Shown here in pieces: positions 40,210 through 45,999 of a DNA stretch of 64,000 nucleotides. The position numbers and the translations under genes are program-made. The stretch is from Anolis carolinensis (Eukaryota): positions 62,001-126,000 of the forward strand of contig NW_026943823.1 in the NCBI RefSeq assembly GCF_035594765.1, read 5' to 3'. Every line of letters starts with the position of its first letter. Within the stretch, counting starts at the first letter, position 1. Below the pieces are notes generated by a model. The model was not told the origin of the DNA. It did not search any database and worked only from the letters and a program-made list of their open reading frames with translations.

Positions 40210-40258
<49 letters not shown>

Positions 40259-40261
40259 TTA

Positions 40262-40829
40262 TTGTATGACACAGCAAACAAGATAGATATGCTGGATTTC
40301 GTATCACAAAATCACACGTCGAACACTTCCCAAGTGTCTAGGACTGTGTGATGTATTTTTGGATGATGCGTGCAGATCCCAGCAGGGTGGCCTTTTGCAG
40401 TTGGCAGATCGTAATTTTGTCAATGTCTATTGTTTCCAAATGCCGGCTGAGATCTTTTGGCACAGCACCCAATGTGCCGATCACCACCGGGACCACCTGC
40501 ACTGGTTTCTGCCAGAGTCTTTGAAGTTCAATCTTGAGGTCCTGATAGCAGCTGAGTTTTTAATAATAATAATATCGAGGCTGGGTGGCCATCTGTTGCG
40601 GTTTCTTTGCTTGTGCTTTTCCTGCATGAAGGCAGAAGGAGGTTGGACTGGATGACCCTTAAGGTCTCTTCCATTATTATCATTATCATTATTGAGACTG
40701 GATGGCCCTTGAGGTCTCTTCCAACTATATCATCATCATCCTCACCATCATCATCAATATTACTGGGGCTGAAAGATTATTTGTTGGGGATTGGGGTTCA
40801 GCTCGATGGCCCATAAGGTCTCTTTCAAC

Positions 40830-40894
<65 letters not shown>

Positions 40895-41002
40895 GACACA
40901 GCAAACAAGATAGATATGCTGGATTTCATATCACAAAATCACAAGTCGAACACTTCCCAAGTGTTTAGGACTGTGTGATGTGTTTTCGGATGATGCACGT
41001 AG

Positions 41003-41166: not shown

Positions 41167-41254
41167 GACACAACAACGTTGTATGACACAGCAAACAAGA
41201 TAGATATGCTGGATTTCGTTTCACAAAATCACAAGTCGAACACTTCCCAAGTGT

Positions 41255-43435
41255 CTAGGACTGTGTGATGTATTTTTGGATGATGCGTGCAGATCCCAGT
41301 AAGGTGGCCTTTTGCAGTTGGCAGATCGTAATTTTGTCAATGTCTATTGTTTCCAAATGCCGGCTGAGATCTTTTGGCACGGCACCCAGTGTGCCCATCA
41401 CCACCGGGACCACCTGCACTGGTTTCTGCCAGAGTCTTTGAAGTTCAATCTTGAGGTCCTGATAGCGGCTGAGTTTTTCCTGTTGTTTTTCGTCAATGCG
41501 ACTGTCACCTGGGATGGCAACATCAATGATCCAAACCTTGTTCTTTTCCACAACTGTGATGTCTGGTGTGTTGTGTTCCAGAACTTTGTCAGTCTGGATT
41601 CGGAAGTCCCACAGTATCTTTGCGTGTTCATTTTCCACAACCTTTGCAGGTTTGTGATCCCACCAGTTCTTAACTGCAGGGAGGTGATACTTGAGGCATA
41701 GGTTCCAATGAATCATTTGGGCCACATAGTTGTGCCTCTGTTTGTAGTCTGTCTGTGCAATTTTCTTACAGCAGCTGAGGATATGATCAATGGTTTCATC
41801 GGTTTCCTTGCACAGTCTGCACTTTGGGTCATCAGCTGATTTTTCGATCTTGGCCTTGATTGCATTTGTCCTGATGGCTTGCTCCTGGGCTGCACGGATC
41901 AGGCCTTCTGTCTCCTTCTTCAGGGTCCCATTCGTGAGCCACAGCCAGGTCTTCTCTTTATCAGCTTTTCCTTCAATTTTGTCAAGGAACTTTCCATGCA
42001 GTGTTTTGTTGCGCCAGCTGTCAGCTCTAGTTTGTAGTGCAGTTTTCTTGTACTGGTTTTTTGTCTGCTGTGCTTTGAGGAGTTTCTGATTTTTGACTTC
42101 AATCAAAGCAGGTTCTTCACTTTGTTTTACATATTCTGCCAGGGCATTTTCCTCTTCTTTGACTGCTTGCTTTACTTGTAAGAGTCCTCTGCCCCCTGAT
42201 CTTCTAGGCAGATATAGCCGGTCAACATCACTGTGAGGGTGCAGGGAATGATGAATGGTCATGAGTTTTCTTGTTTTTCTGTCCAAATTGTCCAGTTCCG
42301 CCTGTGTCCAATTTATAATGCCAGCAGTATATCTTATGACAGGTATGGCCCAGGTGTTTATGGCCTTGATGGTGTTGCCTCCATTGAGCTTGCTTTTGAG
42401 AATTTTTCTGACCCTTTGTGTGTATTCTTTACTGACCACAGTCTTCACATGTTCATGCTTGATGTTGTCCAGCTGTAATATGCCCAGATATTTATAGGCC
42501 TCTGGCTGGTGACACCTTATTGTTTGGCCATTGGGCATATTGATGCCCTCACTTTCAATTATTTTTCCCTTCTTCAATGCCACTGTCGAACATTTGTCCA
42601 AACCAAACTCCATGTTGATATCAGTGCTAAAAATTCGGACAGTGTTGGTCAGAGATTGGATTTCAGTTTCCGTTTTCCCATATAGCTTCAGGTCATCCAT
42701 GTACATCAAATGTGAAATTTTGTGAGAATTCTTAGATGTTTGGTAGCCGAGATTTGTTTTTTGTAAGATTGTTGACAGAGGGATCATGGCAATAATGAAA
42801 AGCAGAGGGGACAATGAGTCTCCCTGGAAAATTCCTCTCCTGATGTTGACAAGTCCATAACTTTCATTTCCAACAAACAGTTCAGTTTTCCAGTGCTCCA
42901 TCATGTTTTCAATGAAGGTGCCAACGTTTTTACTAATCCCGATGGCGTCCAGGCACTTGATGATCCAGCTGTGTGGGAGTGAGTCAAAGGCCTTCTTGTA
43001 GTCAATCCACGTCATGTGAAGATTAGCTTTTCGGCTCTTACAGTTCTCCAGAATCATTTTGTCAATCAATAACTGGTCTTTTGTGCCCCTGCTTTTCCGT
43101 TTGCTGCCTTTCTGTTCATCTGGCAAGATTTTTTTTTCTTCAAGATAGTCTTGAATTCTGTCAGCTATGATGCCAGTCAGTAGTTTAAACATAGTGGGCA
43201 GACACGTTATTGGCCTGTAGTTTCCTGGTGCTGCTCCTTTTGCTGGATCCTTTTGTATCAGGTATGTTCTTCCAGTTGTTAGCCATTCACTGATACTTCC
43301 TTTCTGCAGCATCTCATTGAATTGTTGGGCCATTTTTCCATGTAAACTAATCAGATGTTTGAGCCAAAATCCATGAAGTTGATCACTACCAGGCGATGTC
43401 CAGTTCTTGACTTTTTGCACTCGTTTGCTGATCAA
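41255..43435 (-). CDS. R4/Dong reverse transcriptase + CCHC + restriction-like endonuclease (N-terminally truncated)
   Basis: 726 uninterrupted codons: NYRPITCL, IDYKKAFDS, GIFQGDSLSP, YMDD, CRLC-x8-H-x4-C, PDITVV...IIDVAIP, KLSRY. Confidence 0.93.
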   Translation of the reverse strand: MISKRVQKVKNWTSPGSDQLHGFWLKHLISLHGKMAQQFNEMLQKGSISEWLTTGRTYLIQKDPAKGAAPGNYRPITCLPTMFKLLTGIIADRIQDYLEEKKILPDEQKGSKRKSRGTKDQLLIDKMILENCKSRKANLHMTWIDYKKAFDSLPHSWIIKCLDAIGISKNVGTFIENMMEHWKTELFVGNESYGLVNIRRGIFQGDSLSPLLFIIAMIPLSTILQKTNLGYQTSKNSHKISHLMYMDDLKLYGKTETEIQSLTNTVRIFSTDINMEFGLDKCSTVALKKGKIIESEGINMPNGQTIRCHQPEAYKYLGILQLDNIKHEHVKTVVSKEYTQRVRKILKSKLNGGNTIKAINTWAIPVIRYTAGIINWTQAELDNLDRKTRKLMTIHHSLHPHSDVDRLYLPRRSGGRGLLQVKQAVKEEENALAEYVKQSEEPALIEVKNQKLLKAQQTKNQYKKTALQTRADSWRNKTLHGKFLDKIEGKADKEKTWLWLTNGTLKKETEGLIRAAQEQAIRTNAIKAKIEKSADDPKCRLCKETDETIDHILSCCKKIAQTDYKQRHNYVAQMIHWNLCLKYHLPAVKNWWDHKPAKVVENEHAKILWDFRIQTDKVLEHNTPDITVVEKNKVWIIDVAIPGDSRIDEKQQEKLSRYQDLKIELQRLWQKPVQVVPVVMGTLGAVPKDLSRHLETIDIDKITICQLQKATLLGSARIIQKYITQS

Positions 43436-43439
43436 GGTG

Positions 43440-43581
43440 CCACCGCAGGTGCCACCTTGACGTGGTGGGGGGGCTTAACTGCTCCAATGATGACTGAGGG
43501 CTGTGCTGGCGGTAGTGTAACTACCGGTAGGTCCAACCAAGCCAGAGAGGCCTCAGCTGAGGAGCAGAACTAAGAGCACCT
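43440..43581 (+). ncRNA. Candidate HDV-like self-cleaving ribozyme (L1Tc type) with K-turn in P4
   Basis: P2 AGGTGC/GCACCT, P3 ACC/GGT, L3 TTGACGT, P1 3' strand G7, P4 CTGCTCC/GGAGCAG, J4/2 CTAA; box C ATGATGA and box D CTGA. Confidence 0.65.
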
Positions 43582-44562
43582 AACCCATTAGCATTATGGA
43601 GAAACAAACCCAAACGAAGTCTATACTGGCTCGGTCGTCGCCCAGGATAAAAAGGACCACGGTGGATGCTGCTGATTCTGGACATCCATTGACAAGTGGG
43701 CTACGGAATCATCAAACCCCAAATGAACAGTCACAGAAGCGGCAGAAATATACAATGCCAGAAAACCACACAATTATTATTATTATTACTATCATTGTTA
43801 TTATTATTATTAATGTTGAGGCTGTATGGCCATCTGTTGGGGGTGCTTTGATTGTGCTTTTCCTGCTGCTGCAGCTGGCTCGTTTCCTCCGTCCAAAAGG
43901 GCCCAACGCTGCTGGGAATGGCCAAGGGCCGGCCGAACCCCAGGACTGCCCTTTGCCCCTTATCAGCAGCAAAGGCAAATGTTGTCAGGATGGGCGGCTG
44001 CCAAGCTGCTCCTTATCGGAAAGGCAAGGCTGTTGGGTGCATATGTATGTATGCATACAAGTATGTACACACATTCACACCCACAAACACGCCCCTCCCT
44101 CCCTCCCTCCCTCCCTCCCTTGCCCTGCCTTTCACCTAATCCCTGTCTCCAGAGAAGCCTGGCCAATGGGCACAAGCCTTCCTTGGCCCATACGACTCCT
44201 AGTTGAGAACGGGGCTGGACTGGATGGCCTTTGGGGCTCCCTCCTAAATGTATGATACTATTATCTATCACATATAGTTGCAAGTGTGAATGCTGCAATT
44301 AATTGCCTTGATTAGCATTGAACAGCCTTGCAGCTTCAAGGCCTGGCTGCTTCCTGCCTGGGGGGACCCTTTGTCGGGAGGTGTTAGCTGGCCCTGATTG
44401 TTTCCTGTCTAAAAATTCTCGTTTTCTGAGTGTTGTTATTTTTTTTTTTTACAGGCGGGAATCAGCCAGGCCTTGAAGTTGCAAGGCCATTCAGTGTTAA
44501 TGAAGCAGGCCAACTGCACCATCCACACTTGCTTCATACAGACAACAATAACAATAGTAGTA

Positions 44563-44885: not shown

Positions 44886-45019
44886 TCGTAGTAATACTCA
44901 CACAAGGCCCTTGGAGCCCTTCCCTTGCATTCCCGCCTCCCCACCGGCAGGGGGCAGCATCGTCCCGCCTTAGGCAGAAGAAACAACAGGAGCGAGACTG
45001 GGAAGGAGTGGGCGTGGCG

Positions 45020-45406
45020 CCCGGCCCCGCGGCCCCGCCCCCTTTCCCCTCCCTCCGCCCCAAAGGGGGCGTGTCCGGGCCCTCCCTGGCGAGGACCCCT
45101 GCGCGCCGCTCTGCCATTGGCTGGCCCCGCCTCCCTTGCTTTGGGCTGTCCTCGGCGTTCGCCTGCGCGGGAGAGTAGAGCGGCGGCGCGGGCGGAGGGA
45201 GCGCCAGTCGGGGCCGGGACGCCGGAGAAGAAGGAAGGGAAGAAGGAAGGAAAGCAGGAAAGATCCCAGCACGGACTCTTTGGGAGAGGAATAGGCGTTG
45301 CCAGGGCAACCCCAGCGGGATATGGAAACAAGAGGAGCCGCCAAGGAAGTGGATTAAGCGAATTGGACGCTGAAGAAGGAGCCGGTCGGGGAGGGGGCGG
45401 CGGAGG
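45020..45406 (+). promoter_or_regulatory. EFNB1 CpG-island promoter and 5' UTR with uORF 45322-45357
   Basis: GC boxes at 45020-45060, inverted CCAAT at 45116; uORF METRGAAKEVD*. Confidence 0.65.
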
Positions 45407-45630
45407 ATGGTGCGCCCGGACGGGGAGGAGGAGGAGGAGGAGGAGGGGGAGGGAGGGGCCCCCCGGAAGTGCCGCTTCCGCCCCGCTTCCGCCTCCCCTT
45501 CCGCCTCCGCTTCCGCCTCCGCTTCCTCCTCGGCGCGCCTGCTGGGCCTGCTCCTGGCCCTGCTCCGCCTCGCCTCGCCCCTCCTCGCCAAGAACCTCGA
45601 GCCCGTCGCCTGGACCGCCTCCAGCCACAA
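45407..45630 (+). CDS. EFNB1: Ephrin-B1 coding exon 1 (exon 2 not found in window)
   Basis: MVRP...[31 protein letters not shown] matches EFNB1 (MARP...[23 protein letters not shown]); phase-2 donor AA|GTACGC. Confidence 0.9.
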
Positions 45631-45966
45631 GTACGCGCCTCTCCCCCTCTCGCTCCTCTCGCCCGGGATTCTGTGGCTGGGGTTGCCTTGGATGGCCATC
45701 TGTCGGGAGGGCTCTTGCCTGGCAGGAAGAAAGGGAGTGGGCTGGATTACCTCCGGAGGTCCCTCCCGACTCTGGAATTCGATTGTTGTTATTATTGTGC
45801 CAGGCTTTGTGTGTCCTCTCCCTGGTTTCATAAAGCCTAGGGTTCTATTGTTGTTGTTTTGGATGGCCATCTGTCGGGAGGGCTTTGGTTGTGCTCCTTC
45901 TGCCTGAAGGCAAAAGGAAAGGAGTTGGACTGGGTGGCCCTTGGCATCTCTCCCAACCTAAAAATC

Positions 45967-45999
<33 letters not shown>

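Follow-up and report, generated by a model that had tools for sequence, protein, structure and literature searches.

HDV-like ribozymes are described at the 5′ ends of the retrotransposons R2, R4, Dong, RTE and L1Tc (PMC3774820, PMC3185411), and the ribozyme analysed here resembles those accounts in its 5′ position, nested double pseudoknot, 7-bp P1, 7-nt L3, single P1.1 pair and J4/2 C. Its first base is C, as in the L1Tc ribozyme, for which cleavage before a C1 is documented (PMC3185411); self-cleavage has also been shown for silkmoth Dong, according to PMC3774820. The P4 of HDV-like ribozymes is described as substitution-tolerant, non-catalytic and replaceable (PMC13648714). Our ribozyme differs from the known retrotransposon examples in its long P4, which carries a conserved kink-turn (k-turn) at a fixed distance from the core and is common to RTE and some Dong elements, and in a P1.1 that we read as G(L3)-C.

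Like standard k-turns as outlined for Kt-7, for the SAM-I riboswitch and for U4 snRNA (PMC5061560, PMC4382518), the motif consists of a 3-nt bulge, tandem G.A and A.G pairs and flanking helices. The commonest state of SAM-I, and Kt-7, have A.G at the 3b.3n position according to these sources, as does one of the RTE families described below (RTE-b); unlike the standard examples, the present set spans self-folding and protein-dependent types at 3b.3n. The terminal motif of box C/D snoRNAs (RTGATGA, CTGA, U.U and G-C pairs, terminal stem) is shared only by two lizard Dong subfamilies, A and B, whose k-turn differs from a snoRNA in lacking C′/D′ and a single-stranded guide, in being embedded in a ribozyme and in being unconserved in sister subfamilies.

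HDV-like ribozymes in R4, Dong and RTE are already known, and the k-turn in their P4 appears to be the new part. RTE ribozymes were reportedly predicted by Ruminski et al. in 2011. The list of occurrences in the k-turn review of Huang and Lilley (2016, PMC5061560) holds neither a self-cleaving ribozyme nor a retrotransposon, and the word 'kink' is absent (0 occurrences) from the main texts of PMC3774820, PMC4908430, PMC6765202, PMC5786205, PMC11331408 and PMC13708176. The literature searched contains no report of a natural k-turn in an HDV-like ribozyme P4; the motif may already be drawn in figures or supplements of Ruminski et al. 2011, Webb and Luptak 2011 or Webb 2009, which lay outside its scope.

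The predicted ribozyme and its P4 k-turn in the window

The window is a 64,000-nt stretch of the Anolis carolinensis genome (contig NW_026943823.1, positions 62,001 to 126,000, forward strand). It holds a rearranged copy of an element with one 1,144-aa ORF, in which we find an RT domain (Pfam RVT_1, E 5e-32), a weak zf-RVT match and, read from the translation, a C-terminal PD..D-type endonuclease motif; (AAT)n lies at both ends or junctions. The protein is 98% identical to Anolis carolinensis entries, and a word-based protein search returned only three near-identical lizard proteins. By its sequence features (single ORF, RT, RLE-type endonuclease, (TAA)n insertion) the element is a Dong/R4-type retrotransposon. 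The assignment to the R4/Dong clade is made from features of that clade, together with its repeat insertion. Insertion into TAA repeats is described for Dong (PMC3774820). The features of the locus are as follows.

41170-43434, minus strand: 3′ part of the Dong/R4 element (element nt about 1392 to the 3′ end), with RT, zinc-knuckle, PD..D endonuclease, 3′ UTR and (AAT)n, from the RVT_1 match and translation
43435-43444, plus strand: filler of 10 nt where the inversion joins, duplicating 43447-43456 and taking the place of the P1 C7 strand, from comparison with full-length copies
43445-43581, plus strand: HDV-like fold minus the P1 5′ strand, from sequence, full-length copies, covariance model and pair counts
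Within it, plus strand: P2 43447-52/43576-81, P3 43454-56/43464-66, ribozyme L3 43457-63 and P1′ 43467-73
Within it, plus strand: single P1.1 pair G43459-C43474, and J4/2 43568-73 with predicted catalytic C43570
43479-43567, plus strand: P4 domain, 89 nt, from sequence and predicted fold
43481-43493, plus strand: bulged strand of the k-turn, with C-stem GCTCC 43481-85, bulge AAT 43486-88, G1b and A2b 43489-90, U3b, G4b and an extra A5b, from sequence and alignment
43494-43556, plus strand: distal P4, with helices CTGAGG 43494-99/CCTCAG 43551-56 and CTGGC 43506-10/GCCAG 43541-45, hairpin 43511-25 (GGTAG 43511-15/CTACC 43521-25) and loop motif 43528-41, from family comparison
43557-43565, plus strand: non-bulged strand of the k-turn, with CTGA 43557-60 (C4n, U3n, G2n, A1n) and C-stem GGAGC 43561-65, from sequence and alignment
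43596-43777, plus strand: start of the element ORF (MEKQTQ...), cut at a hot spot CACAATTAT and followed by the (ATT)n target repeat

In the window copy, element nt about 2-339 run along the plus strand and the part from nt about 1392 to the 3′ end along the minus strand, and the filler leaves two mismatches in the 7-bp P1. Because it is 5′-inverted and has lost a P1 strand, this copy is probably inactive. The inversion falls at a fixed site (window 43769-43777) and affects about half of the copies that hold it: the 5′ piece ends at CACAATTAT and passes into (ATT)n in 436 places, against 379 that read through (controls 0), and among the 30 best copies each of the 12 hot-spot loci has element DNA in antisense orientation immediately upstream of the ribozyme. 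The hot spot resembles twin priming in which an RLE element would use the opposite strand of its microsatellite target; the literature searched offers no obvious report of such a fixed-site hot spot. Contigs of four sequencing runs, presumed to be RNA, cover the region, and in three of the four listed the inversion junction shows up as a loose end. Two further 5′-truncated 3′ fragments of the element lie on the minus strand in neighbouring (AAT)n (window 40240-40560 and 40850-41000).

P2, P3, a ribozyme L3 of TTGACGT, the G7 of P1′ and the CTAA of J4/2 are all present in the window copy. Full-length copies start at C7 right after (AAT)n, this C7 pairing with the G7 downstream of P3, and show a 7-bp P1 beginning with C, the 7-nt L3, one P1.1 pair, P4, J4/2 CTAA and P2; they thus have the nested double-pseudoknot order (P1, P2, P3, P1.1, P4), which the window copy departs from at P1. 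The P1 sequence varies by family and is complementary within each, the J4/2 C is invariant in 11 of 11 aligned sequences, and the ribozyme L3 is TTGACGT or a close variant. Our covariance model scores the window copy at 151.6 bits, by construction. No Rfam family matches the window at the gathering threshold or a full-length copy at E<=0.5, and 10 loci searched at E<=0.5 gave only chance-level miRNA and CrcZ matches. We considered, and dropped, a pairing of the invariant CUU after P1 with a CCAAG loop, which is missing from RTE-b.

Indirect evidence for the RNA 5′ end comes from the inverted copies (n=26), 10 of which reach the C-run and 0 of which carry an (AAT)n leader; the leader is present in 20 of 25 other copies. 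Leader-free inverted copies point to an element RNA that begins at C1, and an internal promoter acting from +1 would look alike. An extra C at the 5′ end is frequent among inverted copies, and in many copies the P1′ G-run and the preceding GGT unit are expanded (GGTGGTGGT, up to about 15 G).

Within P4, box C (ATGATGA, 43487-93) and box D (CTGA, 43557-60), whose positions were read directly, yield G.A, A.G, U.U and G-C at 1b.1n to 4b.4n, with the A at 5b unpaired. The 3-nt bulge precedes the tandem G.A and A.G as in a standard k-turn, and the C-stem is lengthened by CT/AG at 43479-80/43566-67. The earlier note on this DNA had read a C/D-type k-turn with distal stems inside a ribozyme P4; we find each element of that reading where it had been placed, and the other parts of an HDV-like fold lie around 43479-43567. 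The loss of the P1 strand in this copy had escaped the note. The predicted fold of 43479-43569 (91 nt) contains these P4 helices and is matched in stability by 0 of 200 shuffles (z -3.90). Since the reverse strand folds comparably (z -4.00), energy alone does not decide the strand. Among 20,000 dinucleotide shuffles of the 89-nt P4, none produces boxes C and D closed by a 4-bp stem, and 335 (1.7%) produce a generic k-turn.

Box C/D identity among the lizard Dong subfamilies

Both boxes occur in ribozyme context at 332 places in the genome (control 1), and the 30 best copies, all of subfamily A, are identical at the boxes with the k-turn intact in 30 of 30. These copies are 0.6% divergent, so that their agreement reflects youth, and we rejected it as evidence of selection. 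A pattern lying upstream of the k-turn (167 matches, control 9) exposed older and sister subfamilies. We chose 30 loci only on sequence upstream of the k-turn, 29 of which could be parsed. Both boxes are intact in 12 of these (subfamily B), where the C-stem is mostly altered on both sides, and are damaged in one; the other 16, subfamily C, have another form of k-turn without box C, in which the bulge is GAG or a one-letter variant, the extra A is missing and 3b.3n is C.U, U.U or U.G. Boxes C and D are thus not conserved across these family copies. Both GA pairs are intact in 27 of the 29 loci.

Subfamily C has 129 exact genome matches. Its U.G branch, C2, is young (1.4% within-group divergence over 10 copies, 4.3% from A) and has G at k-turn L3 and U.G at 3b.3n, without the box C/D identity. 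An older-type copy (L352) reads GAT GA CG / CT GA and has no extra A; among 11 aligned sequences, the A at 5b is an insertion found only in A and B. This one copy and the outgroups suggest that box C arose in A and B through two transitions of CpG type plus one insertion, and that C lost the k-turn L3 U. As so few changes suffice from the older type, drift can reach box C.

The earlier note had gone further and proposed a snoRNP mimic. A true mimic in A and B would assemble SNU13, NOP56/58 and fibrillarin, yielding nucleolar RNA or stable snoRNA-like fragments of about 85 nt. Such a mimic would have perfect boxes at either end of a domain that a terminal stem closes, as the 89-nt P4 has in A and B only; the 5b A, inserted in these subfamilies and missing from the older-type L352, and the retention of both boxes in 30 of 30 best copies and in 332 genome matches fit it as well. 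Against this, 43494-43556 holds no second RTGATGA-like box that could form an internal C′/D′, and a covarying helix takes up the sequence 5′ of box D, which is not single-stranded and so leaves no guide. Subfamily C2 has also spread without box C, and conservation in A has its explanation in youth. We consider a snoRNP assembly very unlikely, and as a conserved function it is not supported. In the sequences compared, box C/D identity is a lineage-specific state of lizard subfamilies A and B.

Covariation and the k-turn in RTE and distant Dong elements

Metagenome contigs, scanned by protein, contained 23 Dong-related loci; two of them (L120 and L123, 45-48% protein identity) carry the same ribozyme and were found by protein, not by motif. 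L120 has a clean k-turn (UAU bulge, U.G, C-G); in L123, 4 extra nt in the non-bulged strand disturb the k-turn, and P1.1 is broken. The other 21 fail to match the model, several having different 5′ UTRs and several having no 5′ end. In six of the loci (L114, L117, L118, L124, L131 and L136), (AAT)n is followed by structured 5′ UTRs of quite another kind, which match neither the model nor Rfam. The proteins of L118 and L121 are close to that of L120 yet their 5′ ends differ, a hint that 5′ modules may be swapped among Dong elements. Built from the Dong N-terminal region (15 rows, 137 columns), a weak tree with a long lizard row leaves the three ribozyme carriers ungrouped, which only hints at module exchange or loss.

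Searching the lizard genome with the shared loop motif led to an APE-type RTE family (RTE-a; 99 matches, control 0), and the core pattern led to a second (RTE-b; 600 matches, control 0, with some Dong or RTE-a loci in small number among them). The motif, YAGGKCCAMCCAAG (distal P4, 43528-43541), is near-invariant across lizard Dong, the two distant Dong elements and RTE-a (L137-L166), and RTE-b is without it. Both RTE families have the k-turn in the same place, with GA/GA intact in 23 of 29 parsed RTE-a loci (one locus unparsed) and 25 of 29 RTE-b loci (one Dong locus removed). The 3b.3n pair is A.A in 17, U-A in 9 and A.G in 3 of the RTE-a loci, and A.G in 26 of 29 in RTE-b, a family that lies outside the covariance model and scores 69-78 bits. 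In all families with the ribozyme, the k-turn is placed 9 nt past the P1.1 site.

Because the RTE loci had been fetched with patterns requiring ATGA or RTGA, we ran a control on the catalytic-core pattern alone. G stands exactly at 1b, 12 nt past CTT, in 1,397 of 1,449 genome matches (control 1). By eye, the 52 without it (about 13 expected, from the control) are for the most part damaged members of these families, and no further family is among them. The k-turn L3 is U in 93 of the first 100 core matches listed, and 5 of the 7 exceptions are Dong C. A pattern meant to reveal one more family carrying the shared loop turned up only four variants of RTE-a type; motif scans of viral contigs gave 0 and 2 matches, neither fitting the covariance model. 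Prokaryotic contigs gave 120 loci, 100 of which were screened; one scored 25 bits with broken stems, and we judged it a chance match.

Across R4/Dong and RTE 5′ UTRs, where the earlier note had looked to the boxes for conservation, it is the k-turn that persists and not the box C/D identity. That the k-turn occurs in sister subfamilies of Dong, in two APE-type RTE families and in two distant Dong elements marks it, on these comparisons, as old. We aligned 11 sequences (4 lizard Dong, L120, L123, 3 RTE-a and 2 RTE-b). G1b, A2b, G2n, A1n and the L2 A are the same in 11 of 11; of the 24 paired stem columns, only 5 are invariant. Double-sided changes are seen in 4 of 5 C-stem pairs and 5 of 7 NC pairs (9 of 12 flanking pairs), giving canonical helices on both sides of the bulge and G.A pairs. 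Pairing holds in 94% of cells, compared with 32-47% in slid registers, and 0 of 500 shuffles reach the covariation score; relatedness among the 11 sequences means that cells do not count as independent events and that this covariation is not a probability. It is the pattern expected of a selected k-turn, and supports the k-turn sequence in P4 as real and under selection.

The invariant letters could instead be kept for another reason, such as an internal DNA promoter or a site for the element's own protein, without any kink. Precedent exists in the 5′ end of L1Tc, described as both promoter and ribozyme (PMC3185411), and the 1.7% of shuffles with a generic k-turn show that the motif can arise by chance. 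The GA dinucleotides, however, are 70 nt apart yet stand opposed between two covarying helices beside an exact 3-nt bulge, and the RTE and Dong proteins belong to different classes. A kink-free explanation therefore seems unlikely to us.

Possible roles of the kink

Our preferred reading, to which we give a probability of about 0.5, is that the kink itself is selected: its sharp bend would fold the long P4 arm back alongside the predicted ribozyme core, at a cleaved and likely uncapped 5′ end. The folding, self-cleavage, protein binding and purpose of the module are predictions. Rather than acting in catalysis, the compact 5′ domain would help to keep the RNA stable or to assemble an RNP once cleavage has taken place. 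We place its role after cleavage since P4 is described as non-catalytic and replaceable (PMC13648714) and the HDV fold has been proposed as a protector of R2 RNA 5′ ends (PMC11331408).

The natural variants at 3b.3n bear on this reading. As reported by McPhee et al. (2014, PMC4382518), folding in ions is allowed when 3n is G or 3b is C; Watson-Crick 3b.3n types and the archaeal box C/D k-turn do not fold in ions alone and need protein. The C.U and U.G of Dong C, the A.G of RTE-b and the U.G of L120 fit the ion-folding rule, under which Dong C1 and C2, L120 and RTE-b are predicted to fold unaided, and kinks with A.G, U.G or C.U at this position should close in Mg2+ alone. For Dong A and B (the type of the window copy, with U.U plus the extra A) and the U-A copies of RTE, the prediction is dependence on a protein of the L7Ae family, most likely SNU13. 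One lineage thus lacks the L3 U and has self-folding pairs, while another has an ideal SNU13 site and a non-folding pair, which suggests the bend as their common requirement.

The main rival to a selected kink is that in every family a host protein of the L7Ae family lands on the k-turn (SNU13, with eL30 or some other member in its place if L3 is not U); once bound, this protein would protect or localise the uncapped RNA or aid its translation, the bend being incidental. The L2 A is invariant and L3 is U in all lineages but Dong C, as a protein pocket would require and a pure hinge need not; L3 is reported to occupy that pocket, and a purine at L2 to raise 15.5K/Snu13 affinity (PMC1874613). 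Lizard A and B, with U at L3, a purine at L2 and U.U at 3b.3n, combine features reported there to favour 15.5K/Snu13. The same source has L30 accommodating a protruding G, and families with U.U or U-A, the latter a poor ion folder seen in 9 of 29 RTE-a loci, have been successful. The distal arm, moreover, varies freely: distal P4 is family-specific, RTE-b being without the shared loop and RTE-a without the hairpin at 43511-25, so that no single docking partner for a folded-back arm is evident. Dong C speaks against a universal landing site, with 129 exact matches, self-folding 3b.3n pairs and an L3 G reported as harmful to 15.5K/L7Ae binding (PMC1874613), and most lineages have riboswitch-like self-folding pairs. 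On this balance we regard a universal landing site as possible but doubtful. Only 2 of the 23 metagenome Dong-related loci match the model (many lack the 5′ end), so Dong can do without the module altogether.

A broader, tentative proposal is that a widespread subclass of these ribozymes passed as a module between RTE and Dong/R4 and that its k-turn recruits SNU13, a host protein of snoRNPs and the spliceosome, to stand in for a cap and to scaffold an RNP on the self-cleaved RNA. SNU13 would then be a host factor of RTE and Dong retrotransposition, with A and B having sharpened the site to box C/D.

P4 is usually regarded as dispensable. A k-turn conserved in two unrelated retrotransposon classes provides a four-nucleotide handle on it and names a candidate host protein family, and it bears on how uncapped, ribozyme-cleaved retrotransposon RNAs survive and get translated. 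One genome supplies natural variants of self-folding and protein-dependent k-turn types, ready for comparison. RTE elements are reported to be under development as gene-writing tools (PMC13708176); if the 5′ module does bind a host protein, this would be relevant to their template design.

About 1.6 kb downstream of the element, the window contains a GC-rich promoter-like region with a first exon (44960-45640, ATG 45407). The exon encodes an acidic run, a signal-peptide-like stretch and LAKNLEPVAWTASSHK, which looks ephrin-B-like; a comparison with PDB sequences gave no match. The intron that follows holds a tandem array (45660-48200) with a unit of about 120-140 bp and (ATT)n between units.
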